Made by a program: the position numbers and the translations under genes. Below, one piece after another: positions 14,044-30,005 of a stretch of 64,000 nt of DNA. The notes under the pieces were generated by a model that had not been told where the DNA came from, did no database searches, and worked only from the letters and a program-made list of their open reading frames with translations. Every line of letters starts with the position of its first letter. The stretch's first letter is position 1. The DNA is from Nitrososphaera sp. Its GTDB lineage: Archaea; Thermoproteota; Nitrososphaeria; Nitrososphaerales; Nitrososphaeraceae. The stretch covers positions 15,437-79,436 of the forward strand of contig NZ_JBBIHK010000005.1 of assembly GCF_037447015.1 (NCBI RefSeq). The letters are read 5' to 3'.

Positions 14044-15447
14044 TTGATAAGAAACCGCGCCGAGCTGGAGGAGTTCCACGGCAGAGAGGCAGGAATCGTC
14101 CTTGGCGCGCTTGACGCCGCGATAAAGAGCGTCGAGCCGGGCAGGCTTGTCAGGCGCGCCATGAAATTCGACGGCACCAATGGCCACCTTGTCGTACGAG
14201 ACATCGCAGGCGACAGCGTCCGCAGGTTCGAGGGATTCAAGGACGTATACATTGTAGGGGCAGGCAAGGCTACTGCGGCCATGGCCGACGCGGCGTGCTC
14301 CATCCTGAAAGGCAGGGTGGCAGGAGGCGCGATAAACGTGCCCCGCGACGGCGCAGGCGACAGGATAAACGACAGGCGCATACAGGTGACCCACGCGTCG
14401 CACCCCATCCCGGACAGGAGCGGACTGAAAGGGGCGAAAAGGATTGTCGACGTTGTCAGAAGTGCAGGCGACGACGACCTTGTGCTCGTGCTGATTTCCG
14501 GCGGAGGCTCGGCGCTGATGCCGCTCCCTGCAAAGGGCCTGACCATAGCAGACAAGCAAGAGATGACGTCTCGCCTGCTTGCTTCCGGCGTGTCGATCCA
14601 GGAGGTGAACGTCGTTCGCAAGCACCTTTCGGCTGTCAAGGGCGGCAGGCTGGTGCAGGGCGCAAGGTGCACGATAGTCTCGCTTGTCCTGTCCGACGTG
14701 ATAGGCGACGACCTTGGCTCGATAGCCTCGGGCCCGACGTCGCCTGACCCGTCAACGTTTGCAGACGCCGCCAGGATAATCAAAAAATACAGGATAGCAG
14801 GGCCGGCGGCTGCCATCCGGCACCTGTCAAAAGGCGCCGGCGGGCTGATAGAGGAGACGCCCAAGCCCGGCGACCCGGCATTCGGCAGGGTGCACAATTT
14901 CATAATAGGCAACAACGAGCTGGCATGCAGGGCCGCTGTCGCGTATCTGAAGCGCAGGGGCGTCAACGCCAGGTACCTCGGCTCGGATTTTGCGGGCGAC
15001 GCCGCCAGGTTTGGAAGGCAGATGGCAGGCATTGCCTGCCCGGCGGTGGCAGGAGGCGAGACCACGGTGCGCCTTGGCCGCCAGAAAAAGCGCGGAAAAG
15101 GCGGCCGCAACCAGGAGGCGGCCCTTGCCTTTGCACTTGCAGGCAGAAGAAAGAAAGGCAGTGAGGCGATAGCAGGCTTTATCGGGACCGACGGCATCGA
15201 CGGCAACTCGGACGCGGCAGGCGCCATAATATCGAAGAGGTCGATGCTGCTATCAGAAAAGATAGACGCCAAGAAGTTCCTAGCAGAACACGACAGCTAC
15301 CACGCGCTAAAAAAGATAAAGTCGCTGATATTCACCGGCAGGACTGGCACCAACGTGAACGACGTTGCAGCGGTGGTATTACTGCGACGTGCTGACACCG
15401 CCACTACTACTACTACTGCTGCCGCCGGCGACCATGACATCGCCTGA
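14044..15447 (+). CDS. glycerate kinase / hydroxypyruvate reductase family (DUF4147 + MOFRL)
   Basis: 467 aa. VYIVGAGKATAAMA, LISGGGSALM, RKHLSAVKGGRL, GGETTV and GTDGIDG are hallmarks of the MOFRL-type glycerate 2-kinase family. Confidence 0.85.
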   Translation: MIRNRAELEEFHGREAGIVLGALDAAIKSVEPGRLVRRAMKFDGTNGHLVVRDIAGDSVRRFEGFKDVYIVGAGKATAAMADAACSILKGRVAGGAINVPRDGAGDRINDRRIQVTHASHPIPDRSGLKGAKRIVDVVRSAGDDDLVLVLISGGGSALMPLPAKGLTIADKQEMTSRLLASGVSIQEVNVVRKHLSAVKGGRLVQGARCTIVSLVLSDVIGDDLGSIASGPTSPDPSTFADAARIIKKYRIAGPAAAIRHLSKGAGGLIEETPKPGDPAFGRVHNFIIGNNELACRAAVAYLKRRGVNARYLGSDFAGDAARFGRQMAGIACPAVAGGETTVRLGRQKKRGKGGRNQEAALAFALAGRRKKGSEAIAGFIGTDGIDGNSDAAGAIISKRSMLLSEKIDAKKFLAEHDSYHALKKIKSLIFTGRTGTNVNDVAAVVLLRRADTATTTTTAAAGDHDIA

Positions 15448-16452
15448 CACTACGCGGATCTCTTTTTCTCCGTTCTCCACTCTGACGACTAGCGAACCGT
15501 CGCCGGCGACATCCACTGCCGTGCCGCGTATAGGCTTTTTGCCCTGCTGCTGCGATATAGTCACCTGTTTGCCCAGCATGTCAGACCTCTTTTTCCATTC
15601 CTCCATCACGGCCCGCTGTCCCCCCTCTCCCTCCTTCTCATTTTCTTCCAGCATCAGAAAGTAATAGTGCTCTAGCTTTTCAAGGAGCGCCCCTGTCAGG
15701 CGGAGCCTGTTTATGTCGTGGCCGGCCTCCTGCGCAAGCGAGGTTATCCCCGGCCTCCCTTCCCTGCCCTCGATTTTCAGTTTCGACGTATCGACGTTTG
15801 CGTTTATGCCGATGCCCACGACGGCGTAGTTGACGGTCTCGGCCTCGGCGCTCAGGTCAAGCAATATCCCGGCCACCTTTTTGCCTGCGACCATCACGTC
15901 GTTTGGCCACTTTAGCGTGGCGTTGATTTTTGCCTCTTGGCGGATGGCGTCGCACACTGCCACTGCCGCAGCAAACGGCAGCATCGTGCTTGCCGCAGTC
16001 GGTATCGGCGGCCGCAGCACGACAGACAGCCATATCCCGCCCCTTGGCGAGACCCAGCGCCGCTTCATCCTCCCACGGCCGCCGCTCTGCTGCTCGGCAA
16101 TGACCACCAGCCCCTCGTCTTCGCCCTTTTCTGCAAGCGCAATTGCAATCGCCTGGGTCGAAGTCGCCATCTCGCGGTAGACTATTTTCTTTTTGCCAAG
16201 GACCTTGTTAGTATGCAAGAGCCGTCCAAGCTCCCACGGCACAGGATACTCGGTGCCGCCTGCCAGCCTGTAGCCCTTGCCGTGCAGCGACTGGATATCG
16301 TAGCCGCATCTGCGCAGCCTGCGTATGTGCTTCCAGACTGCGCTCCTTGAAATCCCCGCTTTTCTGGCAAGCGTCTGGCCCGACGAGTAGCCGGCCGAGT
16401 CCTGCAGGACCGAAATAAAGTCTTCCAGCCTGTCAGCAGAAGTTCTTGGCAT
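15379..16452 (-). CDS. birA: bifunctional biotin-protein ligase / repressor BirA
   Basis: N-terminal HTH (GQTLARKAGISRSAVWKHIRRLRRCGYDI). Ligase motif QQSGGRGRMKRRWVSP and KWPNDV. Confidence 0.9.
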   Translation of the reverse strand: MPRTSADRLEDFISVLQDSAGYSSGQTLARKAGISRSAVWKHIRRLRRCGYDIQSLHGKGYRLAGGTEYPVPWELGRLLHTNKVLGKKKIVYREMATSTQAIAIALAEKGEDEGLVVIAEQQSGGRGRMKRRWVSPRGGIWLSVVLRPPIPTAASTMLPFAAAVAVCDAIRQEAKINATLKWPNDVMVAGKKVAGILLDLSAEAETVNYAVVGIGINANVDTSKLKIEGREGRPGITSLAQEAGHDINRLRLTGALLEKLEHYYFLMLEENEKEGEGGQRAVMEEWKKRSDMLGKQVTISQQQGKKPIRGTAVDVAGDGSLVVRVENGEKEIRVVSGDVMVAGGSSSSSSGGVSTSQ

Positions 16453-16744
16453 GCATGCACATTATTTCGTGCGGTATAATAATCAATTAATTATTTGAGA
16501 ATATCGCTTCTACCAAGCGTCTAATGCAACAAAAGCGTTGCATAACTTGTTGCACAAGCGCGGAGCTTCGAGCTAGTCCCGAAAATCCACAGACACTAAA
16601 CTTCTTTGCAAAGATTCATCAAGTATTACTAACAATTTTTCCGACTTTATTATCTGTTATTTGGTATATCTATCCCCCTACCACGTCACTGTTTCTTCTG
16701 TCAGTTCTTGGTGATGCTACAATCAAGGAGATGATGGATACCTA

Positions 16745-18088
16745 GTGGCTCAGTCATTTGTACAGAGAAAGAAGAGCCGCCTGCGTGTCAAGGGTCTGAA
16801 AGTAAAGGACAGAGAGAAGATCAAAGAAGCTATTGCAATTAGCGTCCAGAACGGCAACTATACAACTAGGGAAATAGGCTTGGACATTGGCAAGGATCAC
16901 ACCACCGTCTCACGCTATCTGACAGAGATGGAAAAGGAAGAAGGTAAATGGGGCATCAGACGCGATGCCAATGGCAACATCGTCATCTCGCTGCAAAAGC
17001 AGCTGGCACAGGAATACAGGCGCCTTGAAAGAGGCGGCGAACCATTCAACCAGCTGCCATCTATACAGAAATGGATAACGTATCTAAAGTCGGGCGGCAT
17101 ACCAGCAACGCGCATCCAGTACATGGTAAACGTCATTCACGGAATCTCGGACCAGCTGATGGTCATGCCAGAGACACTGGTCAGCCACGGAGTACCAATT
17201 GACTCGGCAAGGAGAAAAGAGATAGCTATAGAGTATTGGCGCAATTTCCTTGCATGGTTTAATAGCGCGTATCCTCGGATGCAAAAAACAGGCGCCATCA
17301 ATGTTTATAGAAGCTTTTTGTCAGCTCACAGCGTCAACTTTGCCCATGGCGAAGGCAAGAGGTACGGTCTGTCAACGACTCCTGAGAGGCTCGGAGAATA
17401 CAAAGAAATTATGCTCACGCCAGAGCAGATTGCTGCCATAAACAAACGCCTTGAAAAAGAGAGTGACTGGGAATCCTGGTCGTTTATGAACATCGACCTG
17501 CACACTGGAGCCAGGGCATTTGCAATGGCGTCGATGAACTGGGACAGGATAGCTTTCTCACCTTTATTCAGAGTAGAGCAGTTTGAACCGAAGGTAAAGC
17601 GTGGTGACTGGTACCTGACAAAGGAAGGCAAGTGGTGGGTCAAGTATCCTACAGAAGAGTGCAGGGCTGTTGTCGAGACCGCGCATGACAGGCTGCCAAA
17701 GAAAGAGAGATTTCTGTTTTTTGATGATGCCGGCAGCGACAAGGCAAATGCCCTGCAAGCTTCTTATGTCATGTCAAGGATGGCTGTCAAGTTCAAAAAG
17801 GTATTTTCGGAGCTCGACAAAGCAAGTTGGATTAATGAAAAGACTAGAATATACGCACTAGGGGACGAAGTATACTTTAACGGACACCCTTTGCATTTGT
17901 TAAGGCATACAATGGCACAGTACTATTTGGTAGCCACGAATTGGTCGTTAGCTTATGTGGCAAGCTTGGGCGGGTGGGAGAACACGGAAGTATTGAACAA
18001 GTGTTATGGTGGCATTCCAGAGCACGTTAAAGCACAGATGGCAAAGTCTATTCATGCCAGATTTGATGTTCTTCTTAACCTTCAATAA
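16745..18088 (+). CDS. tyrosine recombinase / phage-type integrase with N-terminal wHTH
   Basis: 447 aa. Catalytic signature elements are DLHTGARAFA (Arg), HLLRHTMAQY (His-x-x-Arg) and LGGWENTEVLNKCYGG (Trp/His ... Tyr). N-terminal HTH is TTREIGLDIGKDHTTVSRYL. Confidence 0.85.
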   Translation: MAQSFVQRKKSRLRVKGLKVKDREKIKEAIAISVQNGNYTTREIGLDIGKDHTTVSRYLTEMEKEEGKWGIRRDANGNIVISLQKQLAQEYRRLERGGEPFNQLPSIQKWITYLKSGGIPATRIQYMVNVIHGISDQLMVMPETLVSHGVPIDSARRKEIAIEYWRNFLAWFNSAYPRMQKTGAINVYRSFLSAHSVNFAHGEGKRYGLSTTPERLGEYKEIMLTPEQIAAINKRLEKESDWESWSFMNIDLHTGARAFAMASMNWDRIAFSPLFRVEQFEPKVKRGDWYLTKEGKWWVKYPTEECRAVVETAHDRLPKKERFLFFDDAGSDKANALQASYVMSRMAVKFKKVFSELDKASWINEKTRIYALGDEVYFNGHPLHLLRHTMAQYYLVATNWSLAYVASLGGWENTEVLNKCYGGIPEHVKAQMAKSIHARFDVLLNLQ

Positions 18089-18583
18089 CCAACGTTGATG
18101 GATATTGATATTGTAGGTTCTATTCATAGACAGGAGCGGTCTTGCATGCTGTAGCCGCTGGTTATCTTGTGCCTTATCTTGTCGAGTTTTGTGCCAGTTC
18201 TCAACCTGCATTTTATGCATCAAAATTACTGGTGCTTCTGTGAGCGAAAAGCCGCAAAAACCGGCAGATTTTGAAATAATAACATTGTTAGTTGCAGGGA
18301 CATCTATCACCCGCAATTTCTGAGTAGTAAGGCGAAGCTCATGGCATTGGGCCTCTATCTCTTGACTGTGTAAAGGGCTGCCAGAAGGACCAAGAAAGAG
18401 ACGACGAAAAGGCACAGAAAATGTTCGAGTCAGGAGCGTTTACGCTGCCAGATGCGCCCACAGGTCAAGCTGACGGCAAATTAAACTAATTTTATTGCTA
18501 GACTCTGCTGTTTGAGCTCTTGCTTTTTCCGGTCCTGAGGAAACAGTCAAAATCTTGCTCTCAATGAAAAACCACGACTAGAT

Positions 18584-19024
18584 TCAGTATTTCAGTATTT
18601 CAATAGTTGCAGCTTCCAAAATAGACTCAAAGCCCTTGCTTACCGACTGGTTCCTCAGGTACTTGGCAAAATCAGTATTAGTGATGATTCCGACTATCTC
18701 TTTAGAGACCGGATCCTTGACCAGAAGGTGACGGACTTTATTTTTCAGCATGATGTCAGAAGCCTGTTCCATGGGTGTATTGGCATCGACATATACTAGT
18801 GGCGGAGATATGGCAATAATCCTATCAGGCTGCAGATCGCGCGAGATAATCCTCACGATATCGCGTTCTGTGAAAATTCCTATGATGTCGTTATTGTCAT
18901 CCGTTATCAGTACTGAGCTGACGTTGTTCTTGTCCATCAATTTCGCTATATCTTTAGCAGTGCTCCTGATATTGATTGTAACCAGCCGTTCATTCATGTA
19001 CCGTTCAACAGTAGTTTGGTTCAT
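18584..19024 (-). CDS. CBS-pair domain protein
   Basis: Two CBS motifs (VSSVLITDDNNDIIGIFTERDIVR and VRHLLVKDPVSKEIVGIITNTDFAK). ATG at 19024 is preferred over the track start at 19069. Confidence 0.8.
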   Translation of the reverse strand: MNQTTVERYMNERLVTINIRSTAKDIAKLMDKNNVSSVLITDDNNDIIGIFTERDIVRIISRDLQPDRIIAISPPLVYVDANTPMEQASDIMLKNKVRHLLVKDPVSKEIVGIITNTDFAKYLRNQSVSKGFESILEAATIEILKY

Positions 19025-19286
19025 GATAGCTAGTACTGAGAGTATCCGTGCATATAAGCTGAATAGCATATGTTTCGTCGCAGGTCATCATTCTTTTTGC
19101 AACCACAGTAGAAGATGGTGGGATGTATACCGAGGAAATTTAGCGAATAAGTAACACGCGTATATATCATGATAGAAAATCAAGATAGGGACTATTGCGT
19201 ATTATCAGGTTTCTTGATAACGACAAGCTTTTACCTTACAAAAAAAGAAAGGAGATGGCAAATTCTGTTACATTAGGCTAAATTTC

Positions 19287-19829
19287 TCATTTTACTTCTA
19301 CTTTGGTGCTTTCTTCTTCCACTTTTGTAGGAGTCTTCTTTGGCAGCTTTACGTTCAGGATTCCGTTACTCATTTTGGCTTCTATTTTTGACGGCACTAT
19401 CTCTTCAGGTATCGGAACTCTGCGGTAAAATGATCTATACGACCTTTCATTATAGACGTAATTCTTTGCCTTTTCTTCTGTCTTTTCCTTCTGTTCGCCA
19501 GTAATCTCGATAGAATGCTTTGTGGCTTTGACATCGATCTTTTCTTTTTCAATTCCTGGCACTTCGACTGATAGCTCATAGTGATCTCCCTTGTCCACCA
19601 TGTCGCACAATGCCTTTCTTATTGCTGTCTGGCCTTCCTCGAACAGGGATGGGAATTCAAAATTCCAATCAAACGGTGAGGACCATGGACGCACGAGTGT
19701 TCTTTCTACTTCACGTCTAAAGTTGTCAAAAATGCTGTCCAGTCTTCTTAGGGCCAAAAATCTGTTTTCCTCTGCTACTTTTGACTCGTTTCTTTTGGAG
19801 ATATCATCAGTTTTTTCGGACGATGTCAT
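19287..19829 (-). CDS. small heat-shock protein (Hsp20/alpha-crystallin)
   Basis: Alpha-crystallin domain: DMVDKGDHYELSVEVPGIEKEKIDVKA ... ERSYRSFYRRVPIPEE ... AKMSNGILNVKLPKK. Confidence 0.9.
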   Translation of the reverse strand: MTSSEKTDDISKRNESKVAEENRFLALRRLDSIFDNFRREVERTLVRPWSSPFDWNFEFPSLFEEGQTAIRKALCDMVDKGDHYELSVEVPGIEKEKIDVKATKHSIEITGEQKEKTEEKAKNYVYNERSYRSFYRRVPIPEEIVPSKIEAKMSNGILNVKLPKKTPTKVEEESTKVEVK

Positions 19830-19880
19830 ATGCAGAGAGAGAAATGCTCGTTGTTATTTTAGTTCTAAGAACATAGTGCA

Positions 19881-19891
19881 ATGCAGTGCAT
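19881..19891. promoter_or_regulatory. palindrome ATGCAGTGCAT in the sHsp/USP divergent promoter
   Basis: ATGC-N3-GCAT, preceded by GTGCA. It lies 52 nt from the sHsp start (19829) and 40 nt from the USP ATG (19931), between two TATA-like boxes. Confidence 0.55.
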
Positions 19892-19930
19892 ACATATTGC
19901 ACATATACGCAGGGTTTGAAAAATTGCAAC

Positions 19931-20431
19931 ATGTCTAAAACAGCTACTTCTACAAAAGCTCAAACCGTAGCTGGGGTGTCCAAGATTCTCGTGCCTCATG
20001 ACGGCTCAGAAGCATCAGACAAGGCACTCGACAAGGCCATAGAATTTGCCAAGGCACTGGGCTCGGAAATAATCCTTCTCAATGTGGTCGACGACCGCTT
20101 CGTGCCGCCCAGCACAACACTTGCGTTTCTGAGCGAAAAGTCCTCTTTGGAAGACGCCAAGACGCAGATAGTCAGACTGCTAAAGCAGGCTGCAGAGGGC
20201 ATGCTGAAGGACAGGATTCAAAAAGTCACCAATCAGGGCATAAAGATGCGGCACATACTGGCGGTAGGGTCGCCGGCAGAGGAGATAGTGGCCATAGCAG
20301 ACAACGAAAAAGCAAGCCTGATAATTATGGGTTCCAGGCGGCTCTCGACAAAGGAAAAGATAAAGGCACTTGGCAGCGTCGCAAGGAGGGTTTCAGAGAC
20401 ATCCTCCATTCCTGTAATGATAGTGAATTAG
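19931..20431 (+). CDS. universal stress protein (UspA family)
   Basis: KILVPHDGSEASDKALDKAIEFA ... IIMGSRRLSTKEKIKALGSVARRVSETSSIPVMIV contains the ATP-binding G-x2-G-x9-GS motif. ATG at 19931 is about 26 nt after a TATA-like box. Confidence 0.85.
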   Translation: MSKTATSTKAQTVAGVSKILVPHDGSEASDKALDKAIEFAKALGSEIILLNVVDDRFVPPSTTLAFLSEKSSLEDAKTQIVRLLKQAAEGMLKDRIQKVTNQGIKMRHILAVGSPAEEIVAIADNEKASLIIMGSRRLSTKEKIKALGSVARRVSETSSIPVMIVN

Positions 20432-20606
20432 TAGGGACATTTACTACTCAGCAACAACAACAATAACAGCAGAGCAGTGCCAGTCATTTTTTAAAAACAA
20501 TTTTTTGGTTTTTACTCTCAATCAAAGCATGGCGCAAAAAGAAAGAGGGTAAAAGGAGGAAGGAGAGAATAAGAAACAGCAGAGCCTCTGCTTGTTTGTT
20601 TCTTTC

Positions 20607-21248
20607 TTACTCGACCCTTATTTCCTTCCCTTTGGGCTGCTTTTTCTTCCCAAAAGTTATTTCCAGTATGCCGTTGTTGAAGGTTGACTTGGCAGTATCG
20701 GTGTCAGCCTCAGGAGGCAGCTCTATCGTTCGGCGGTACTTTCTCTGCGGCGTTTCTGCCTTTACCTCAATAGACTTGTCGTAGACATTCACCTTGACAC
20801 TGTCTTTGGTGACGCCGGGCATTTCCACAACCACCTTGATGTCTTTGTCTGACGTAACGACGTCTGCAAGTGGCTCCCTCTCAGAAGTAAGCTCTGGTGT
20901 CGTCCCAACACCGCCTGCACCTCCAAGAGACTTGACGTTTCCAAACTCTCTTACCCTTGGCTTTCCATCCGGCCCTATAGTGACAGAATACCCATAGACT
21001 ATCGGGCCTACTTCTCTTACTTTTCCGCCGCCCTCTGTTTCGTACTCACGAACAAGGTCCTTTGGAAGTTTTTCTGTGTCACGGAATGCGTCTTCGAACA
21101 TCTTTTCCATTTCTCTGCGCATTTCTTCAAATTCGCTAAATATGCTGCCGCTTCCTTCCCTTCCAAAGCCAAACCTTGTCATCCTGGCTGGAAAGAATCT
21201 CCTGAACCATTCATCAAATTCTTTATCTTTAGAGCTCATCAAATTCAC
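20607..21248 (-). CDS. small heat-shock protein (Hsp20 family) with long N-terminal arm
   Basis: 213 aa. ADVVTSDKDIKVVVEMPGVTKDSVKVNVYDKSIEVKAE ... KSTFNNGILEITFGKK is an alpha-crystallin domain. The GTG at 21248 fits leaderless geometry, and an alternative ATG lies at 21239. Confidence 0.85.
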   Translation of the reverse strand: MNLMSSKDKEFDEWFRRFFPARMTRFGFGREGSGSIFSEFEEMRREMEKMFEDAFRDTEKLPKDLVREYETEGGGKVREVGPIVYGYSVTIGPDGKPRVREFGNVKSLGGAGGVGTTPELTSEREPLADVVTSDKDIKVVVEMPGVTKDSVKVNVYDKSIEVKAETPQRKYRRTIELPPEADTDTAKSTFNNGILEITFGKKKQPKGKEIRVE

Positions 21249-21299
21249 CTAGCTCAATTGATGCCGCTGTTTGCTCTTAAGCATTTCCAACGCGGTGCC

Positions 21300-21310
21300 A
21301 TGCACAGCAT
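21300..21310. promoter_or_regulatory. palindrome ATGCACAGCAT in the sHsp / small-TM-Cdc48 divergent promoter
   Basis: ATGC-N3-GCAT, preceded by GTGCC. It lies 52 nt from the sHsp start (21248) and 39 nt from the ATG at 21349. Confidence 0.55.
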
Positions 21311-21348
21311 GCGCGTTCTTTTTTTATTCTAATGAACAGGATAATCCT

Positions 21349-21582
21349 ATGAACAAGAGGACACTAGATGCCTTGACAAGATGGGTTCCGCTGAGCGCAG
21401 TAGCATCAGGCCTGTCATTGGCTATTGGCTCAATACTCAACATCCCACAGATGAGCACGGTTATGGCAGCAACTGTCGCAGGAGTTACAGTATTTGCGGG
21501 CTTTGCCATGAGGTCTTATGGTAAGGGATCCAAAGAGTACTATGAAGGTGCTCAAGAGAAACAGGGCACGATTAGCTCCTAG
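21349..21582 (+). CDS. small membrane protein (two predicted TM helices)
   Basis: MNKRTLDALTRWVPLSAVASGLSLAIGSILNIPQMSTVMAATVAGVTVFAGFAM plus a charged tail. The ATG is about 26 nt after the T-rich TATA box, and the gene ends 39 nt upstream of Cdc48. Confidence 0.55.
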   Translation: MNKRTLDALTRWVPLSAVASGLSLAIGSILNIPQMSTVMAATVAGVTVFAGFAMRSYGKGSKEYYEGAQEKQGTISS

Positions 21583-21621
21583 TTATTAGTGAGAGAATAG
21601 TAGGAGGAGATGTAAACTATC

Positions 21622-23895
21622 ATGCCAGACAATAACAATAATAACGCGGATAAACAGAAAGGAAGTAAAACGAGTTTTTCTTTACGCGTGGCTGAAGCTT
21701 CTGGAAAAGATGTCGGAAGAAAAATCGCCAGAATAGATCCAAAAGTTACGGAAGAACTTGGAATTGCTACAGGCGACGCAGTAGAGATATCTTCTGCCGG
21801 CGGTGGCCGCAAAACCACAGTTCTAAACTGGCCTGCATACCAGCAGGATCGTGGTAAAGGCCTAATCCGCATCGACGGCTATGTAAGAAACAAGCTTGGC
21901 GTGGGAATCAACGACACTGTCGAGGTCAAAAAGGTGGCCGCAAGGCAAGCCGGAAAAGTCACTCTGGCTCCTACCGAGCCTCTCCGAATAGTCGGGGCCG
22001 AGGAATACTTGACAGGGTTTCTAAGCGGGCAGCTTGTAACAAAGGGCGACACCATTCCTCTGAACATCATGGGCCGGCGCGTCGACTTGGTGGTCATTTC
22101 AACCAATCCGTCAGGTCCTGTAATAATATCTGACTCTACAGAAGTAATGATTTCAGAAGAATCCGCCAAGGCCGCGGCGGCTTTGAAGGAAGGCGGCATG
22201 CCGTCCATAACTTATGAGGACATTGGCGGCTTGAAGAACGAGGTCGCCAAAGTGCGCGAAATGATCGAGCTTCCGCTAAGACACCCGGAGCTGTTCAAAA
22301 GGTTGGGCGTCGAGGCACCAAAGGGAGTCATTCTCCACGGTCCTCCTGGAACGGGCAAGACCCTGCTGGCAAAAGCCGTTGCAAATGAAACGAACGCCAG
22401 CTTTTACACCATCGGCGGACCTGAAATCATGAGCAAGTACTATGGCGAAAGCGAGGAACGATTAAGGAGCATCTTCCAAGAAGCCGAAAAGAATGCCCCC
22501 TCAATCATATTCATTGATGAGCTGGACTCGATCGCCCCAAAGAGGGAAGAAGTGTCCGGCGAGGTGGAAAGGAGAGTGGTAGCGCAGCTGCTGTCGCTGA
22601 TGGACGGACTTGCCTCGCGCGGCAAGGTTGTAGTTATTGGAGCCACCAACAGGATAAATGCAATCGATCCAGCCCTTAGGAGGCCAGGAAGGTTCGACAG
22701 GGAAATAGAGATAGGTGTCCCTGACAGGGACGGCCGTCTAGAAATACTGCAGATCCACACGCGCGGCATGCCCTTTGCAGAAGACGTGAACTTGGAAAAG
22801 CTTGCAGACATCTCGCATGGCTTTGTCGGCGCGGACCTCCAAGCTCTGGCCAGAGAGGCGGCCATGCGCGCGCTACGCAGGGTGCTTCCCGAAATCGACC
22901 TGTCTGCCGAAAGCATTCCCGGCGAGACTCTCAGCAAGATAGTAGTCAAGATGCAGGACTTTATGGACGTCATAAAGGAGATGGAGCCCTCTGCAATGAG
23001 GGAAGTGTTTGTAGAAGTCCCAGATGTCAAGTGGGAAGACATCGGCGGCCTAGAAGACGTAAGGCAGGAGCTCATGGAAGCCGTTGAATGGCCCCTGAAG
23101 TACCAGGGCGTGTTTTCCTATGCAGATGCAACGCCGCCAAAGGGGATCCTGCTCTATGGTCCGCCTGGAACCGGCAAGACTCTGCTGGCAAAAGCGGCAG
23201 CAAACGAAAGCGAGGCCAACTTTATCAGCATCAAGGGCCCAGAGCTTTTGAGCAAGTGGGTTGGCGAGTCAGAAAAGGGAGTGAGGGAGGTATTCAGAAA
23301 AGCAAGGCAGGCAGCTCCTTGCATAATATTCTTTGACGAAATAGATGCCATAGCGCCTACGAGGGGCGGGGCGGGACTTGGAGGAGACTCGCACGTTACA
23401 GAGCGCGTGATCAGCCAGATGCTGACCGAGCTTGATGGCCTCGAAGTGCTGACAAACGTGGTAGTAATTGCCGCAACCAACAGACCGGACATTGTAGATC
23501 CTGCGCTGCTGAGACCGGGCAGGTTCGACAGGCTGCTGTACATCGCCCCACCAGACCGAAACGCAAGGCTTCAAATAATAAAAATCCACACGAGAAAGAA
23601 ACCCTTGGCCGCGGATTTCGACATTGAAAAGCTGGCATCCATGACTGACGGGTACACGGGGGCCGACATTGCGGCTCTGTCTTCTGCTGCCGTGATGCTT
23701 GCCCTCAGAGAACACATCTCAAAATACAAAGACCCAAAAGAAGCCGAGAAGAACGCCAAAGAGCTCAAGATACACATGAAGCATTTTGAAGAGGCAATGA
23801 AAAAGATAAGGCCGCTGTCAGCGCAAGAGCTTGAAATGTACAAGAATGTTGCAGAGAGGTTCAGCAACGTAAAGCCCTCGTCTTATCAAAGATGA
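21622..23895 (+). CDS. cdc48: Cdc48/VCP-type AAA+ ATPase (copy 1, low-GC)
   Basis: 757 aa. It has an N-domain, two Walker A motifs ([13 protein letters not shown] twice), Walker B motifs ([16 protein letters not shown]) and second-region-of-homology arginines ([22 protein letters not shown]). Confidence 0.95.
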
Positions 23896-23957
23896 GGGCG
23901 CGCAAGCTAGCAAACGTCGGATCGCATAGAAATTTCTGACCTGCCACTGATGATAGA

Positions 23958-24185
23958 GTGAGCAAAGAAATTATGTCTGCGGACAAAGAAGCAGCCGAAC
24001 GTCACCGAAATAGGAGTAATCTGCTCCTAGCAGGACTGGGGTTCATGGCGGCAGTTATGTTATGGAGGGCGGCGTGGGAGATCACTGCAGAATTGATGTC
24101 TCCATATGAGAGTCTGATCATTGGTCTGGTCCTGCTTGCCGGAATTGCCTATATCGAAAGAGACTTTATCTACAGGCTATTCTAG
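23958..24185 (+). CDS. small membrane protein (two predicted TM helices)
   Basis: 75 aa. LLLAGLGFMAAVMLWRAAW and LIIGLVLLAGIAYI. Co-oriented with and 62 nt downstream of Cdc48. Confidence 0.5.
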   Translation: MSKEIMSADKEAAERHRNRSNLLLAGLGFMAAVMLWRAAWEITAELMSPYESLIIGLVLLAGIAYIERDFIYRLF

Positions 24186-24303
24186 GTCTGCCCTACTGAC
24201 TTGCTCATTCCGACATGGCATTTCTTGCTAACCGCAGAGGCAGGCAGGGAGGACGCAGGCGTATATGATGCGGAAGCAATTTTAGACATCTGAGAAATGG
24301 GCA

Positions 24304-24576
24304 TTATCGTTCAATGTACTCGTCTACCTCTTCGATAACCTTTACGACTCTTGCAGTTTTGAACAAATGCCAATGCGTCAGAAAATACTCCTTGGCGCGG
24401 TCCTTTGATAGGAATAAAAAAGGCCCAAAATCGCGCCATTCATTCCTGTTGTCAATGTACTGGATCTTGTACCTTACAGAGATTATTTTTTCATTTTGAG
24501 ACTCCAATGATGCTATGCGCTTTATGCTACTAGAAATATTTTCTGTAGAACACAGGGTAATAATGCTGATTATCAA
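24304..24576 (-). CDS. hypothetical protein
   Basis: 90-aa ORF in an A+T-rich stretch where long ORFs are not expected by chance. No motif recognised. Confidence 0.4.
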   Translation of the reverse strand: MIISIITLCSTENISSSIKRIASLESQNEKIISVRYKIQYIDNRNEWRDFGPFLFLSKDRAKEYFLTHWHLFKTARVVKVIEEVDEYIER

Positions 24577-24678
24577 ATACCGGATAGTGCATCGCGCGAG
24601 CTATCCGCCAACTTATTAGAATGCACTCCATCATATTTTCTGAGAATGAAAAAATCTCCTTTGCAGGTAGGCTAGTAT

Positions 24679-25050
24679 ATGACATCCAAAATTGTTTCTG
24701 CAGACTATGATCTACCTTTCAAAGATGCTGTAACTATCATGGCCAAGAGTACGATAGGAAACCTTGTGATAAAAAATGGCGGAGGTAATGTAGTAGTAGG
24801 CTTGCTAACAGAACGCGAAATCTTGGCACATCTGTACAGGTACAAGAAAATTCCTGACCTTCAATGCAGGGCAATCAAACTCACGGGATTTACGAAAATA
24901 TCACCTGAAACAACCATAGAAGAAGCTGCGCGAAGAATGATCCTTTCAAAACATCGTCTGCTAGTTTATGACAATTTGGATCAAAAGGATGAAAGGGTGG
25001 CAGGCATTATTACAGCATCCGATCTTGTCAGAGCATTTTTTACTGCGTGA
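24679..25050 (+). CDS. CBS-pair domain protein
   Basis: 123 aa with two CBS motifs (IGNLVIKNGGGNVVVGLLTEREIL and KHRLLVYDNLDQKDERVAGIITASDLVRAF). Confidence 0.75.
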   Translation: MTSKIVSADYDLPFKDAVTIMAKSTIGNLVIKNGGGNVVVGLLTEREILAHLYRYKKIPDLQCRAIKLTGFTKISPETTIEEAARRMILSKHRLLVYDNLDQKDERVAGIITASDLVRAFFTA

Positions 25051-25075
25051 CAAAAACCCTGACTTGGATAAGGTA

Positions 25076-25440
25076 ATGTCAAAAAGGGTGGCCACCCTTC
25101 AAGATTGGGCATCAATAAACGACGCCGTCAGAGTATTGCACAGGAGAAGAATAGGTAGCGTGATAGTTACGACTTGGGATGGATTCTACCAAGGGATTTT
25201 CACTGAACGTGACCTCCTCAGCAAGGTCTTGGTGGAGGACAAGCTTCTGGACAAGAGGGTAGGAGAATATTGTTCGTGGTTCATGCTGACTGCGCAGAGT
25301 GGCATACGTGCGAGGGGTGCTGCAAAGCTAATGTTTGCGAATGACATAAAACGGTTACCTATCACAAGGATGGCAGAATTATTGGGATCGTCACAGCAAG
25401 GGATTTAGTTGAAGCGTATTCTTTGCCGGCTGCTCATTGA
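25076..25440 (+). pseudogene. CBS-pair gene with a 1-nt frameshift near the 3' end
   Basis: The frame from ATG 25076 gives RIGSVIVTTWDGFYQGIFTERDLL ... NDIKRLPIT, then derails into RMAELLGSSQQGI and a stop. The +1 frame from 25366 reads KDGRIIGIVTARDLVEAYSLPAAH with a stop at 25438-25440, which is the expected end of the second CBS motif. The shift is in ACAAGG at 25364-25369. Confidence 0.7.
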
Positions 25441-25562
25441 CATGCAGCTACTTGTTTTAGAGCAAATTGGCTTGCCAGTCTGCATCAAAATTGGCTTTGG
25501 AACGGGCTGCTCAGGCTCCAAGTTGCCATGTGTAGAAGAATTGAATCATATATCATCCTAGT

Positions 25563-26126
25563 TTACTTGATCCTTGAAACAGAGAATCTACTATATGATA
25601 GCAGGAATCCCATTCCGCCTGCCAATATTCCTGCTATCAATACCAATATTGCTATCGCAATGGGTTCCACAAAAGGTGCCATCAACGCATGTACCTGGGC
25701 AGGATCAAATCCCTTGCCGCCTACTGTTTCTGGCAATGCAGCTGCTCCTCCAAAATAACCTGCATACATCATTAACCCCGAGGCGGCTGACACTCCGGTG
25801 TTCATGAGAACTAGGTGCGACCACGCGAGCGATTTGGGAATCTTCGATCCAACATCGCTGCCACCCAGAAAGTGATAAAAAATGGCAGATACCGCGACAG
25901 CTATTACTCCTACTGTTATGTATATGATATAACCGAATGTGAACCAGGTGCCGGCTCCACCTGCAGCGATCACCCTAGACACCTCTGGCTTCATGAATGT
26001 TGCCTGTCCAAGAACTAGAACTGCAGTAAGTCCTACGATTATTGCCCCTTGGATTATGGCTGCAATTATGAACCTCTTTGCCCACAAGTTGGCTTGCTCC
26101 GCCATAGTTTTTCCTTCCATGTACAA
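25563..26126 (-). CDS. polytopic membrane protein, unknown function
   Basis: 187 aa with about 5 TM helices (IIAAIIQGAIIVGLTAVLVL, TFGYIIYITVGVIAVAVSAIF, and others). The start could be ATG at 26120 or 26105. Confidence 0.65.
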   Translation of the reverse strand: MYMEGKTMAEQANLWAKRFIIAAIIQGAIIVGLTAVLVLGQATFMKPEVSRVIAAGGAGTWFTFGYIIYITVGVIAVAVSAIFYHFLGGSDVGSKIPKSLAWSHLVLMNTGVSAASGLMMYAGYFGGAAALPETVGGKGFDPAQVHALMAPFVEPIAIAILVLIAGILAGGMGFLLSYSRFSVSRIK

Positions 26127-26129
26127 CCA

Positions 26130-26333
26130 TTAGTCGACTTCAGTTTTTATTATCCGGGTGTACTTTGCAATGCACTGAATTAGTCTGATGATATGCGATA
26201 ACGTCTTTTCCAGAGTCACTTCTCTGTACGGCACAGAACAGAATATGGAATCCAAGAAAGATGGATTCCTAGCTAAATGCATCTGACCAAATGGCACATC
26301 CTGATTCAATTTGTATTCTAAATTGCAGAGCAT
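26130..26333 (-). CDS. hypothetical small protein
   Basis: 67-aa ORF ending 3 nt before the next gene start. No motif, so support is weak. Confidence 0.3.
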   Translation of the reverse strand: MLCNLEYKLNQDVPFGQMHLARNPSFLDSIFCSVPYREVTLEKTLSHIIRLIQCIAKYTRIIKTEVD

Positions 26334-26512
26334 TGCAGAAAAATCGCACTAGTAAATAGGATCATGGCACCTTGGTGTTATGAAAAAGAAAGATTGCTTC
26401 GCCACGAAGCTCCCAAGATCGGCAGATAGAATATGAAAACCCGGAATGAATCTGAAGCTAGAAGGATAATGATTGGAATTTTGACAGTACTTGCGATTGC
26501 CATATAATTGCA

Positions 26513-26722
26513 GTGCTCATGTTTCTTGGAATACTTGCGGTAGCGATGTTGCTCTTTAATCCCTTGATATTTGTACTAATTGCTATCGTTATAGTACTCG
26601 CCTATTACATGAATAAAGAGCGAAAGAATTGGCATTCTCGTACACGCGCAAGCCAGAACAGATCATCATATTCTGCTGACCGCTCCTCTTCATATGCGCA
26701 ATACGCTTGCAGAGCAGATTAA
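26513..26722 (+). CDS. small membrane protein
   Basis: 69 aa. MLMFLGILAVAMLLFNPLIFVLIAIVIVLAYYM followed by a basic/Ser-rich tail. Confidence 0.4.
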   Translation: MLMFLGILAVAMLLFNPLIFVLIAIVIVLAYYMNKERKNWHSRTRASQNRSSYSADRSSSYAQYACRAD

Positions 26723-26816
26723 CAATAATCGTTACTTCTAGTAGCATGAGTATTTGTATGTCATACAAGAGGTATATATTGAGAATTGTAAAACAATAGC
26801 TGATCATGAGAACACG

Positions 26817-28235
26817 ATGACCCAACACATGAAGACCACTCCCTCATTTCCGCAGATATTTCCAGCAATGTTTGAGCTGTACGTCAATAGCATCAAGGTA
26901 AATCAGTTCTACGCAGACTTGTTCGCAAGGACATTCCGGCAAGCAGTAGATATTGTGTCGTCACAGCAAGAAAAAGCACAAGAGAAGGGTAATAATATTA
27001 GCCTGTACGAAGTCTGGCTTAAATTAACGGACGCCGAGCTTGAAAAGGATCTCCGGTCAGAACCGTTCCTGACCCTTATCTCCAACCTCACAAAAGCTGG
27101 TGTGAACCTGAGGAAGGATATGAGAGAAGCAGGATTCCCTGTCCTTTTTCTCGATTGGCTCTTTGATACGTACGTAAGAAGTTTTATGGTATTTGCCTCA
27201 ATACCAAAGGATTACGACTTTGCAGCATTTGACATAGTATGGGCCAAGGGCAAGACAAGGCTTCTCCACTATCGGGCGACACCTGCTGACCGCTATGACA
27301 AATCTACTAGCAGGCCCCCTTTGCTTGTGGTATATGCCCCGATAAACAAATTCCACATCATGGACATAAGCCCCGACAGGAGCGTGGTGAGGAATCTCAT
27401 GTCACACGGCATCGACGTATACTTGCTTGATTGGGGATTTCCTGATTGGTCGGACTCTGAAATGTCTCTGGGCGACTATGTCAGGCATATCGGGAGTGCG
27501 ATTGAAGCAATAAAGAAGGAGAGTGGTCATGAAAAAATATCGATATTGGGATATTGCTGGGGCGGAATAATCTCTCTGATATATTCTGCACTGAACGACA
27601 ACAAGAACGTAAAGAAGCTGATTCTGATGGCCCAGCCAGTTGACTTTAGCAAGGACAAGACAATCCTTGCAACGTGGGCAAGAGCTGTAGACGTGGACAA
27701 GATGATGGACGAATTTGGCCACATGGATGGTGCAGTGCTGGACATTGCTTTCCTGATGCGCAACCCTCCGCGATATACGTTTGACAAATATTTGAAATTC
27801 TTTCAGAAAGTTGGTGACGCAAAGTTCGTAAGCAACTTTTTTGCTGTAGAGAACTGGCTCCATGATACACCAATGCTTCCCGGCAGGATGTACAGCCAGA
27901 TCATCAATGACTGCTACAAGAACAATCTCCTTATCTCGGGAAACATGCAAGTCGATGTTGTTGGCGGTGATGGGAGTGAGGGGGTTGTTAATAGCGAAGC
28001 TGAAAAGAAGAAGATTGACCTCAAGAAGATAGAGATGCCAATACTGACTATTGTGGCAGAGCAAGACGATCTGGTATCGCCAGAATCGACTCTTGCTATT
28101 AACGAGCACGTGTCAAGCAGTGACAAAACTGTTCTTAAAATGCCGGGCGGCCACGTTGGTCTGTGCATCAGTTCTCATGCACACTCGAAGCTGTGGCCAG
28201 AAGTGGCAAAGTGGATACTGCATTCAAATACATAG
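26817..28235 (+). CDS. phaC: poly(3-hydroxyalkanoate) synthase, class III PhaC-like, with N-terminal extension
   Basis: Lipase-box variant ISILGYCWGGIISL (G-x-C-x-G), alpha/beta-hydrolase core and C-terminal GGHVGL, similar to class III PhaC as I remember Allochromatium PhaC. The region before the conserved core is roughly 90-100 aa longer. Confidence 0.85.
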   Translation: MTQHMKTTPSFPQIFPAMFELYVNSIKVNQFYADLFARTFRQAVDIVSSQQEKAQEKGNNISLYEVWLKLTDAELEKDLRSEPFLTLISNLTKAGVNLRKDMREAGFPVLFLDWLFDTYVRSFMVFASIPKDYDFAAFDIVWAKGKTRLLHYRATPADRYDKSTSRPPLLVVYAPINKFHIMDISPDRSVVRNLMSHGIDVYLLDWGFPDWSDSEMSLGDYVRHIGSAIEAIKKESGHEKISILGYCWGGIISLIYSALNDNKNVKKLILMAQPVDFSKDKTILATWARAVDVDKMMDEFGHMDGAVLDIAFLMRNPPRYTFDKYLKFFQKVGDAKFVSNFFAVENWLHDTPMLPGRMYSQIINDCYKNNLLISGNMQVDVVGGDGSEGVVNSEAEKKKIDLKKIEMPILTIVAEQDDLVSPESTLAINEHVSSSDKTVLKMPGGHVGLCISSHAHSKLWPEVAKWILHSNT

Positions 28236-28564
28236 CAATAGATGCGCACATTGTAGCTCCTTTACTGCAGAAGGAAGATGTAGGAGGTGGAGAGAAGGGT
28301 GTATTGTTATCTTTTGACATTCTTGTATACGCCAAGGACATGCACGCATTGGGGTAATGCAATGTACCTGTGTGCTCAATGTATTTTTGGATGCTCCCTT
28401 GTCGACCATCCCGACGACACTTCTAGAACATAAATTGGCACATGCATCAAAAAATCGCTTTTGGTCAGTCCACGCATACTTACCTAGTTAGTACGGCGTT
28501 ACTACCGGGTTTATCTTCTTCGTATGTTTTTCTTTCCATAACCCAAGAGAAGGTAGAAGACAAC

Positions 28565-28765
28565 ATGGCAAGACTAGTAAAAAAAGAGGACAAAGGACCG
28601 CTGGCAGTCAAGGTAGGTAACGAGACAAAATGGGTCTGCATGTGCGGGCTTTCTGCAAATCAGCCCTTCTGTGATGGCTCGCATAAGAAGACTCTTGACG
28701 AACAGGAAGGCAAGGTATACATCTACAACAAGGACGGTACGAGGACAGAAGCCAAGGTGGAGTAG
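28565..28765 (+). CDS. CDGSH iron-sulfur domain protein
   Basis: 66 aa. CMCGLSANQPFCDGSH matches the C-x-C-x2-S-x3-P-x-CDGSH signature. ATG at 28565 is preferred over the track start at 28442. Confidence 0.85.
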   Translation: MARLVKKEDKGPLAVKVGNETKWVCMCGLSANQPFCDGSHKKTLDEQEGKVYIYNKDGTRTEAKVE

Positions 28766-29125
28766 TTTTGGTTCCAAAAGGTCAGGCGGTATATATCCTG
28801 AACAGACGTGCGAGGAAAGGCAGAAAGGATCATTCATTTACCAAACTTACTTGCAAGTCTGAGCGCAAGCCACCTTCGGATTATACCGAGAAAAATTATG
28901 AAATGAAGTGATATAAGTCAGTGACATCAAAGAAGCCTCGACATATTTCCAATCATGACGGTCTTTTTATTTTAATTTGATGATTTTGATGAAACTATCG
29001 ATAACGATGTCACTTCTTATTGACATATTGTATTTGGGTTGCGTATGAAAGATACATTTGCAAGGCCCTCCCACACAATGCAACGGAGCGCAGAATGAGT
29101 GACGATGGTGAGGTGCCTGCGAGCG

Positions 29126-29180
29126 ATAACGGACGTAAACGGACGTCAAGTCTTCACCCAACATACACGTATAACGGACG
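29126..29180 (+). repeat. three copies of AACGGACG (two as ATAACGGACG) within 55 nt
   Basis: ATAACGGACGT at 29126-29136, AAACGGACGT at 29137-29146 and ATAACGGACG at 29171-29180. These iteron-like sites sit in a non-coding gap 45 nt from the direct repeat at 29224. Confidence 0.6.
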
Positions 29181-29223
29181 GAACCGCCCGCAGGCAGGTA
29201 TTGTAATATCAAATAGAGTATTT

Positions 29224-29239
29224 TAATTTTGCAGTCAGC
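29224..29239 (+). repeat. 16-nt direct repeat, inner copy (TAATTTTGCAGTCAGC)
   Basis: Identical to 29397-29412. It is followed by an 8-bp stem hairpin, AGACGACC (29242-29249) pairing with GGTCGTCT (29262-29269). Confidence 0.75.
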
Positions 29240-29393
29240 AAAGACGACCAGCTATTGATGCGGTCGTCTGAAGACCTAGAACATTTGGATGATATATCCT
29301 TGCTACACAAGCATAGTTTCTGCTGTTGTTGCATATAATATTGCACCCGGTCTGTCCGCAACTTCTTGTGCAACAAAATCGAAAGATAATTAA

Positions 29394-30005
29394 TTATAAT
29401 TTTGCAGTCAGCGCCTTGACGCCTTCACAGGCTGCACTTTTGCCGCCCGTGGCCTTGCACAAAAGGGCAGTGATGTTGTCTATCTCGGCGTTCATGGCCT
29501 TGCCTATGGCAGAGTTTGGGTTGCCAAGCTCTTTCAGCACGTCGGCGTGCGACTTTTCCTGTATCAGCTCGGGGCTGAACCCTGCGCCCACCTGCATGTA
29601 CTGGCCGTCTATCAGGAGAAAAGGGATCATCTGGTCGGGGTTGTACATGTCCAGTATCTCGTAATCCTTGTCGTCCAGCTCTTGCAGCGGCTCAAAGTTG
29701 CGGTCTGCAGTCTCTTTGCCCATGAACTCGACGGTATCGCTCTCGAACCTGGCACGTGCCAGGTTGAACGTCGGGACGTTGAGGTACTTTTCGTCGTGGC
29801 CGGCGCTCTTGTCCTCCACCAGGCCGTCCCACTTGCCAAACCGCTCCAATGCTTTCACGATTGCCCACCGCTCGGCCGCGCAGAACGGGCAGAACCCTGC
29901 GCCCATGAAATACACGAGAGACTTGCCGCCGGGCCTCTTTAACGGTTGATCGGTAACGTGCATGAACTTGCCAAGGACCCTTTTTGGAACGAAATTGCTG
30001 CTCAC
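29394..30005 (-). CDS. DUF929-like thioredoxin-fold protein (CPFC motif)
   Basis: 203 aa. VYFMGAGFCPFCAAERWAIVKAL has the CxxC in a thioredoxin-like context. It is GC-rich like the core genome. Confidence 0.75.
   Translation of the reverse strand: MSSNFVPKRVLGKFMHVTDQPLKRPGGKSLVYFMGAGFCPFCAAERWAIVKALERFGKWDGLVEDKSAGHDEKYLNVPTFNLARARFESDTVEFMGKETADRNFEPLQELDDKDYEILDMYNPDQMIPFLLIDGQYMQVGAGFSPELIQEKSHADVLKELGNPNSAIGKAMNAEIDNITALLCKATGGKSAACEGVKALTAKL
29397..29412 (+). repeat. 16-nt direct repeat, outer copy (last five codons of the gene at 29394-30005)
   Basis: TAATTTTGCAGTCAGC lies immediately next to the stop codon (29394-29396) of the minus-strand DUF929-like gene. Confidence 0.75.

Follow-up and report, generated by a model that had tools for sequence, protein, structure and literature searches.

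The DNA analysed here, a window of 64,000 nucleotides from contig NZ_JBBIHK010000005.1 of a Nitrososphaera sp. assembly, includes an A+T-rich block that opens with an integrase gene immediately past birA. The remaining genes of the block form a stress-related set of two small heat-shock proteins (sHsps), a UspA-family protein (Usp), three CBS-pair proteins and a Cdc48 unfoldase which lies between two small membrane proteins and has no C-terminal HbYX motif, together with a multi-pass membrane protein, a PhaC-like hydrolase and a CDGSH protein (Table 1). GC content falls from 0.62 (16001-16400) to 0.42 (16401-16800), just past the birA start codon at 16452, and a value of ~0.60 is regained only near ~31.2 kb of the window. 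For the block the tetranucleotide distance to the remainder of the window is 0.026-0.040, and for every other 4-kb window it is 0.009-0.020, so that the block stands at two to three times the value of any core 4-kb window. The G+C content at third codon positions (GC3) follows the same division, with medians for long open reading frames (ORFs) of 0.52 inside the block and 0.72 outside it (Mann-Whitney p = 1e-6). The core genes birA, DUF929, pgk and Cdc48 copy 2 have GC3 values of 0.71-0.79, while all genes from the integrase to the CDGSH gene are at 0.35-0.58.

An earlier sequence-only reading of this DNA had noted the shift in composition directly after birA and proposed windowed GC and tetranucleotide profiles as a check; these, and GC3, all set the block apart from its core flanks. 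Every gene which that reading had listed was recovered at its position with Pfam and NCBIfam, the two collections used for all domain searches reported below. The limits it had given, 16453-24185 (7.7 kb), did not hold. Position 24185 is an arbitrary right border, since the foreign composition runs on through the 90-aa ORF to the CDGSH gene, and the low-GC island spans 16488-29394, or 12.9 kb. On the right it stops at the base that comes first in the DUF929 stop codon when the + strand is read.

Table 1. Features of the low-GC island, its insertion target and the second Cdc48 gene (positions in the window)
Feature	Position	Strand	Basis
Left end and conserved non-coding region (attP-type arm, integrase promoter)	16488-16744	+	Family homology start
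Tyrosine recombinase (integrase), 447 aa, N-terminal helix-turn-helix (HTH)	16745-18088	+	Weak Pfam Phage_integrase, residues 224-419
CBS-pair protein, start probably 19024 (146 aa)	18584-19069	-	Pfam CBS, two domains, E = 1e-23
Hsp20a, small heat-shock protein, 180 aa	19287-19829	-	Pfam HSP20, E = 2e-22
Usp (UspA family)	19886/19931-20431	+	Pfam Usp, E = 2.5e-32
Hsp20b, 213 aa, long N-terminal arm	20607-21248	-	NCBIfam NF041800 (archaeal Hsp20) 169 bits, cut-off 140
TM1, small membrane protein, 77 aa	21349-21582	+	Hydropathy, two predicted helices
Cdc48/VAT copy 1, two-ring AAA+ unfoldase, 757 aa	21622-23895	+	TIGR01243 1107 bits, cut-off 803
TM2, small membrane protein, 75 aa	23958-24185	+	Hydropathy, two predicted helices
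90-aa ORF, no known family	24304-24576	-	83% aa identity to NZ_1224; no Pfam match
Two tandem CBS-pair genes (24679-25050 and about 25076-25408)	24679-25408	+	Pfam CBS
Multi-pass membrane protein, 187 aa	25563-26126	-	At least 3 predicted helices; no family match (Pfam, NCBIfam)
PhaC-like alpha/beta hydrolase	26754-28235	+	Pfam Abhydrolase_1 and PhaC_N; dN/dS 0.20
CDGSH iron-sulfur domain protein	28442-28765	+	Pfam zf-CDGSH, E = 1e-10
Right end of element	29368-29394	+	GTGCAACAAAATCGAAAGATAATTAAT; pairs with left-end motif in 8 elements
DUF929, core gene outside element; 3' end is the integration target	29394-30005	-	GC3 0.75; pgk neighbour in >20 relatives
Cdc48 copy 2	47498-49699	-	GC3 0.79; near pgk by synteny in relatives

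The borders of the island were set solely by comparison with a second copy, found in a metagenome-assembled genome (MAG; NZ_1224), and with a wider family of elements that share its integrase. Nucleotide homology between the window and the NZ_1224 copy extends over exactly 16488 to 29393. In at least 12 family loci homology starts at the identical point, with the sequence TAATTAT(T/G)TGAGAA, and the flanks to the left of it are mutually unrelated; the left-end motif of the window element, TAATTATTTGAGAATATCGC, occurs once in the window. The right end conserved across the family is (A/G)TGCAACAAAA(T/C)CGAAA..TAATTA. Left and right end motifs were found paired in eight elements of 5.8-16 kb with unrelated flanks, and in these TAATTA, a short palindromic core, is present at both junctions. 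In the window a 10-bp direct repeat, AATTAATTAT, has copies at 16485-16494 and 29388-29397, the right one overlapping the DUF929 stop codon (29394-29396). At the left junction the sequence is ...AATTAATTAT/TTGAGAATATCGC and at the right junction, on the DUF929 stop codon, it is ...CGAAAGATAATTAAT/TAT (slashes mark the dividing points), and both junctions were found again in independent assemblies. A generic repeat search for long attachment-site (att) repeats gave nothing convincing, and no tRNA gene that could serve as an integration target was found in the 64-kb window.

Upstream of the integrase gene about 255 bp of non-coding sequence are conserved in the family, and the conservation ends right after the integrase stop codon. 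The upstream region includes a 73-aa ORF (16524-16745) in which codon periodicity is absent (0.77/0.76/0.76 by codon position, compared with 0.86/0.89/0.56 in the integrase), and the region is therefore taken as a DNA-level feature of the attP or promoter type. No structured RNA was detected in it with Rfam.

The island is absent from the DUF929-pgk locus in every relative examined (>20). In those genomes DUF929 directly adjoins L10e at its 3' end, with EndA-like, Roadblock and Drg genes also in this flank, and none of these is in the window, where birA and a glycerate kinase gene occupy that side. The interval between DUF929 and pgk also differs. A gene for a 238-aa protein (30165-30881, + strand) lies there in the window and is absent in all relatives, in which the DUF929-pgk gap is ~110 bp. 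Its composition is foreign (GC3 0.49), and its product has an N-terminal hydrophobic segment, internal repeats of ~57 aa (GNLW-type) and a weak Reg_prop match. This gene is a second, independent small insertion which has neither an integrase nor the end motifs.

The sequence-only reading had named the first gene of the block a tyrosine recombinase with an R...HxxR...Y signature. The PF00589 score of its product is 22.4 bits, below the gathering cut-off of 27.1, although R257, H384xxR387, W411 and Y421 are present in it and invariant in 14 members of the integrase family, and some members carry a precomputed PF00589 match. No match was found in the PDB for the sequence or for the family profile. 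The protein is predicted from its catalytic signature to belong to a divergent lineage of tyrosine recombinases. Its homologues comprise 78 proteins (76-86% identity), all of them from Nitrososphaera, and 29 loci in metagenomes; no relative was found in IMG/VR. Several integrases of the family are frameshifted. The invariant part of the family consists of a 1.6-kb left module and a 27-bp right end, and everything between them is interchangeable cargo. In other members this cargo is unrelated to that of the window and includes ABC transporters, rhodanese, secreted proteases, epimerases and a Mod methylase, and the stress cargo accompanied another integrase of the family in 0 of the 29 metagenomic loci.

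A member of the family is present in the cultured strain N. viennensis EN76 (CP007536, ~2,421,609-2,427,378). This element of 5.8 kb has its own ends, which differ from those of the window element by at most 1 mismatch, a Mod methylase gene and an integrase (AIC17174/NVIE_RS13845, annotated as XerC/XerD-like) with 79% aa identity to the window integrase. It is nested within the published 24-kb element NitVie-E5, for which a tRNA-Lys att has been given, and since the nested element is complete NitVie-E5 is a composite.

The closest homologues of the island Cdc48 (95% identity) were found in NZ_1224 and two JGI metagenomes. The NZ_1224 copy has the same gene order from the integrase to the CDGSH gene and lies between an L15e gene on its left and ADH, response-regulator, MEDS and DeoC genes on its right. 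The pgk gene of that genome (91% identical) is on a contig other than that of the element and DUF929 directly adjoins it. Host core DNA is ~75% identical between the window and NZ_1224 and element DNA 77-89%. Synonymous divergence (dS) for the cargo is 0.25-0.8, including 0.27 for Hsp20b, 0.32 for PhaC and 0.48 for Cdc48, against 1.28 for pgk and 1.48 for DUF929. As the cargo values are far below those of the host core genes, the cargo was shared after the host lineages had split, and it moved between the two lineages after their divergence. The mobility supposed earlier for the block is thus supported by a different chromosomal site in the sister species, by ends common to the whole family and by cargo dS far below that of the host.

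The integrase module (16488-18191) has 77% nucleotide identity to NZ_1224 with saturated dS, and the cargo at 20599-28256 is 88-93% identical with dS of 0.25-0.5. Because the module is more diverged than the cargo the element is a mosaic, which implies an exchange of modules within the family. Ratios of nonsynonymous to synonymous divergence (dN/dS) of 0.04-0.20 for the cargo indicate purifying selection and genes kept functional, and argue against junk DNA. Values were 0.044 for Cdc48, 0.10 for each of Hsp20a, Hsp20b and the first CBS-pair protein (88% aa identity), and 0.14 for Usp. The membrane proteins TM1 (79% aa identity, no family match in Pfam or NCBIfam) and the 187-aa multi-pass protein (83%) were at 0.28 and 0.43. 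TM2 is kept in NZ_1224, where it has an in-frame stop near its 5' end.

Usp is transcribed divergently from Hsp20a across a promoter region of ~100 bp; its start at 19931 was inferred from the 168-aa orthologue in NZ_1224. Cdc48 follows TM1 on the same strand after a gap of 39 bp, and the two probably share a transcript. The PhaC-like hydrolase resembles class III polyhydroxyalkanoate synthase, with a TIGR01836 score of 313 bits under the curated cut-off of 365. A motif of tandem [GA]TGCA units, GTGCAATGCAnnGCATAC, was located in the Hsp20a/Usp promoter (19876-19893) and in the promoter between Hsp20b and TM1-Cdc48 (21295-21312), and a copy with three mismatches is found upstream of the 187-aa membrane gene (26158-26175). 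Four matches were counted against 0.76 expected, a number equalled in 2 of 100 shuffles, for a motif that was defined post hoc.

As judged from its ends and genes, the block belongs to the thaumarchaeal cryptic integrated elements (CIEs), a published class of integrated elements with UspA and CBS proteins among their commonest cargo (Krupovic et al. 2019, PMC6563490). The size of 12.9 kb fits the published range (median 17 kb). Three target types have been described, among them the 3' terminus of a protein-coding gene, where the short att of the window element lies. As in other CIEs an integrase block is bounded by direct repeats, here with a core of 6-10 bp, at the low end of the published 8-26 bp (PMC6563490). 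The element is absent from this locus in relatives or sits at another site, and no viral, conjugative or casposon hallmark genes were detected among the element proteins, in agreement with the class. The accessible part of the published gene tables lists Hsp20 once and Cdc48-family ORFs only as fragments of ~160-170 aa (PMC6563490), while in the window element two sHsps travel with a full-length, intact Cdc48. Within that part of the source the full sHsp and Cdc48 set appears to be new for a thaumarchaeal mobile element. The TAATTA-type att and the nested 5.8-kb element have no separate entry in PMC6563490.

The window encodes a second, GC-rich Cdc48 in core context at 47498-49699, as had been read from the sequence, and its GC3 of 0.79 and its synteny in relatives bear this out. 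Copy 1 and copy 2 are 48% identical. Copy 1 has the domains CDC48_N, CDC48_2, two AAA and two AAA_lid_3, and its Walker A/B motifs, pore loops (KYYGESE and KWVGESE) and Arg fingers are intact; Walker A/B, aromatic pore loops and Arg fingers are intact in copy 2 as well. Hundreds of copy-1 homologues with 80-85% identity are spread across Nitrososphaera. In a neighbour-joining tree copy 1 and the NZ_1224 copy formed one branch inside this clade, and a long branch separated copy 2. The sequence-only reading had regarded copy 1 as accessory. This is supported by its location and composition (GC3 0.58 vs 0.71-0.79 for host core genes) but not by its lineage, which lies within a conserved Nitrososphaera orthologous group. 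That reading had also named grouping with the housekeeping orthologue as a result that would count against it, and the tree and gene contexts go part of the way there, as the copy-1 group is chromosomal in relatives. On this placement the island Cdc48 is a member of a conserved, normally chromosomal Nitrososphaera group rather than a novel xenologue.

The C-termini of the two copies differ. Copy 2 ends in KSFYG, a canonical HbYX motif (here defined as a penultimate Tyr or Phe after a hydrophobic residue), with KTFYG as the tail of seven sampled orthologues. The last residues of copy 1 are SSYQR, and the motif was found in 0 of 118 members of its clade. Across Nitrososphaera the Cdc48 paralogues divide by clade in this respect, with the syntenic copy always ending in K[ST]FYG and the other clade, which is sometimes found beside an sHsp, never doing so. 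Thaumarchaeota have no PAN, and PAN-less archaea retain an HbYX-bearing Cdc48 as the proteasomal ATPase, while archaeal Cdc48 without HbYX fails to activate the 20S proteasome (Forouzan et al. 2012, PMC3493965). Copy 2, with its ...SFYG tail, fits this rule and is the presumptive proteasome cap. The island copy and all 118 clade members are without HbYX like M. mazei CDC48-C, which gave no 20S activation (PMC3493965). Given this rule, we infer a proteasome-independent unfoldase role for the island copy. Its clients would plausibly be bound by sHsps or, with the help of TM1 and TM2, be membrane proteins.

Relatives of the cargo were found in ordinary chromosomal surroundings. The copy-1 orthologue occurs by itself among core genes in three cases, N. 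evergladensis SR1, a 3.2-Mb genome and another MAG. On three low-GC contigs (GC 0.45-0.46, one of 411 kb) it heads a chromosomal cluster whose other genes encode a 77-aa protein, Hsp20 (210 aa), Usp, DsbA and AhpC; this Cdc48 has 84-85% identity to the island Cdc48, and the Hsp20 is 62-63% identical to Hsp20b. The 77-aa protein downstream of the chromosomal Cdc48 is Cys-rich; it was considered as a counterpart of TM2 and rejected as not homologous. Hsp20a is 55-71% identical to hundreds of Nitrososphaera sHsps, and a homologue with 78% identity is located in a chromosomal OsmC/Usp/Trx/TrxR/Hsp20/CBS cluster. By these comparisons Hsp20a is an ordinary Nitrososphaera sHsp. The composition of the element matches that of low-GC Nitrososphaera genomes, and the simplest reading would be that a native stress neighbourhood was captured in low-GC Nitrososphaera and brought into a GC-rich lineage.

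Taken together, we consider it likely that 16488-29394 is a Nitrososphaera-specific CIE with captured stress cargo which would add transferable protein-quality-control capacity. In the mechanism we propose, the integrase would recombine a circular form, with the right end joined to the left (...CGAAAGATAATTAAT/TATTTGAGAATATCGC...), with TAATTA-like chromosomal sites, and the Cdc48-Hsp20b(-Usp) core would derive from a stress cluster on the chromosome of a low-GC Nitrososphaera. Once in a new host, the sHsps would be ATP-independent holdases. Cdc48, having no HbYX for docking on the 20S proteasome, would unfold or segregate sHsp-bound or membrane substrates on its own, and Usp and the CBS proteins may be nucleotide-sensing regulators. 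The net effect would be an extra, transferable protein-quality-control capacity.

A number of points weigh against this account or narrow it, several of them concerning mobility. The block is absent from this locus in relatives, but the empty site that the earlier reading had proposed to look for, with birA directly before DUF929, was not seen: birA never adjoins DUF929 in the relatives, and look-ups of the exact BirA and DUF929 proteins returned the occupied arrangement only and no empty allele. With no relative in which the two genes are neighbours, the element coincides with a synteny or rearrangement breakpoint and a clean before-after comparison is missing; recombination between two copies of the element is one possible cause of the breakpoint. 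The att core, at 6-10 bp, is short and AT-rich and may belong to the termini of the element instead of marking a duplicated target. An excised circle was not seen. No replication, conjugation, capsid or terminase domains, which could have pointed to a route of transfer, were detected in the element. The NZ_1224/JGI copy has three insertion sequence (IS) elements (a DUF4096 fragment, a DDE_Tnp_1 element within a CBS gene at the point equivalent to about 25165, and an IS1595 element), and these and the TM2 stop are signs of early decay outside the Hsp20-Cdc48 core.

Other points bear on function. The functional part of the model draws on family knowledge only, and the GTGCAATGCAnnGCATAC motif, as a possible shared operator, hints at co-regulation as a weak post hoc lead. 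The linkage of Hsp20 (~210 aa), Usp and Cdc48 is already chromosomal in low-GC Nitrososphaera, so that the island is a captured native neighbourhood and not a novel assembly. If the host has no chromosomal member of the copy-1 clade, of which the 64-kb view holds only the island copy, the island Cdc48 would not be "extra". With the module a mobilised chromosomal neighbourhood and its Cdc48 perhaps not extra, the idea of an archaeal heat-resistance island is weakened.

Two alternatives accept the element as mobile and differ on what the cargo means. The family may grab arbitrary chromosomal segments, leaving the cargo a passenger with no selectable stress-tolerance phenotype for the recipient. 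We regard this as unlikely: unrelated cargo in other members, frameshifted integrases in several of them and an NZ_1224 copy with three IS elements, one in a CBS gene, and a stop near the TM2 start are what such a history would leave, but dN/dS of 0.04-0.20 over dS of 0.25-0.8 points to genes whose function has been maintained in both hosts, the cargo forms a functionally coherent set, and the Hsp20b-Cdc48 linkage is independently conserved on chromosomes. Alternatively, a conserved housekeeping paralogue may survive in this lineage solely as the island Cdc48, after loss or replacement of the native gene, which would make the island an essential relocated locus and not an accessory one. Against this stand a GC3 of 0.58, compared with 0.71-0.79 in the host core, and a dS between the two copies of 0.48, compared with 1.3-1.5 for host genes; by these values the gene arrived with the element, and recently. 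The Nitrososphaera-wide distribution of the copy-1 group at 80-85% identity, its ordinary chromosomal context in every complete genome or long contig examined, and the separate branch formed by the window and NZ_1224 copies, as a host lineage would form, speak for such a relocation, which we likewise hold to be improbable.

Far less credit is due to explanations that deny a mobile element of this kind. An ancestral core stress locus, with low GC owing to functional or expression constraint, would account for the widespread Cdc48, Hsp20 and Usp homologues in Nitrososphaera, but such a locus should not be absent here in all relatives and at another locus in the sister species, nor have sharp borders, family-conserved ends, an integrase and dS below that of the host. 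The distribution, borders and dS already contradict it, and we give it next to no weight. That the block arose as a chimera of assembly or binning, or is a provirus or integrated plasmid, is very improbable. The coincidence of the element with a synteny break and the presence of low-GC contigs of other Nitrososphaera in the same samples would suit a chimera, yet both junctions are reproduced in independent assemblies. A viral origin was rejected as the integrase family has no match in IMG/VR, and a provirus or plasmid is further opposed by the finding of no capsid, terminase, replication or conjugation domain.

The sequence-only reading had likened the block to the bacterial transmissible stress-tolerance locus (tLST), or locus of heat resistance (LHR; also TLPQC). 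Both are horizontally transferred islands with two sHsp holdases and a two-ring AAA+ threading ATPase, both have cargo related to core proteostasis genes, and membrane-associated and redox-type extras are found in both. This likeness stands as an analogy between mobile units, and does not extend to homology. The ATPase of the tLST is an Hsp100 protein, ClpG/ClpK, whereas that of the island is a classical AAA Cdc48/VAT, on which the ClpA and ClpX models scored 32-46 bits, far under their cut-offs. Of FtsH, YfdX, HdeD, Trx, KefB, DegP and HtpX-like proteins, the envelope and oxidative-stress modules on the published tLST list (PMC8290217), none was detected among the proteins of the window element, and dna/orf1 is absent as well. 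The order in the tLST is shsp20-clpK-shsp20, whereas here both sHsp genes are within 2.3 kb upstream of Cdc48 with Usp between them. The window element would also move by its own tyrosine integrase, unlike the tLST. The tLST is characterised by resistance to extreme heat, pressure or chlorine, and its heat resistance has been demonstrated, while the window element is known from genes alone. A self-contained transferable cassette, in which sHsps would feed an HbYX-less Cdc48 acting apart from the proteasome as disaggregase or membrane-protein extractor with TM1 and TM2 under Usp/CBS sensors, and which would spread heat, desiccation or oxidant tolerance through soil ammonia oxidisers as a functional tLST analogue built from archaeal and eukaryote-type parts, is by this analogy a tentative and rather doubtful proposal. 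The class of element is known and the cargo is new for it, and the heat-resistance idea is an attractive functional analogy.

The view that such an archaeal module had not been characterised holds in part. The cargo set is new for CIEs as far as the accessible part of their tables extends, but CIEs with UspA and CBS proteins have been described (PMC6563490), and co-regulated units of an sHsp gene and an AAA+ ATPase gene are known from two archaeal heat-shock regulons, Phr of Pyrococcus/Thermococcus and HSR1 of Archaeoglobus (PMC10653856). Those regulons are chromosomal, euryarchaeal and governed by a dedicated winged helix-turn-helix (wHTH) repressor, whereas the unit in the window is on a mobile element. 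No wHTH heat-shock repressor was detected in the element with Pfam, the only regulator domain being the N-terminal HTH of the integrase. Rohlin and co-workers are said to have placed hsr1, an AAA+ gene and hsp20 in one A. fulgidus operon in 2005.

If the cargo is functional, a chaperone and unfoldase module (sHsps with a full-length Cdc48) would be documented for the first time on an archaeal mobile element. Proteostasis capacity would then be exchanged horizontally among soil ammonia-oxidising archaea, as metabolic genes are, and this would bear on the adaptation of these nitrogen-cycle organisms to heat and drying. To our knowledge archaea otherwise have no ClpB-like disaggregase activity, and the HbYX-less, sHsp-linked Cdc48 clade is a candidate for it. 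The family, delimited by its ends and integrase and with a member in cultured N. viennensis EN76, offers a handle on thaumarchaeal excision and integration.

Other features of the window lie outside the island. BirA (15379-16452, - strand) and the convergent glycerate kinase gene (DUF4147/MOFRL, 14044-15447, + strand) overlap at their 3' ends by 69 bp (15379-15447), and the C-terminal tail of BirA is Ser-rich and unusual. Further GC dips (0.50-0.52), with one low-GC3 ORF (0.52), occur in the GC-rich core at 2001-4000 and 9542-10219. The region 42276-46337 has ~3 kb more DNA in the window than in NZ_1224 and is another variable region. It encodes two Lrp/AsnC-like or HTH proteins, an Ig/TIG-like protein and several ORFs with no assigned family, and the ORF at 45849-46334 within it has a GC3 of 0.46.

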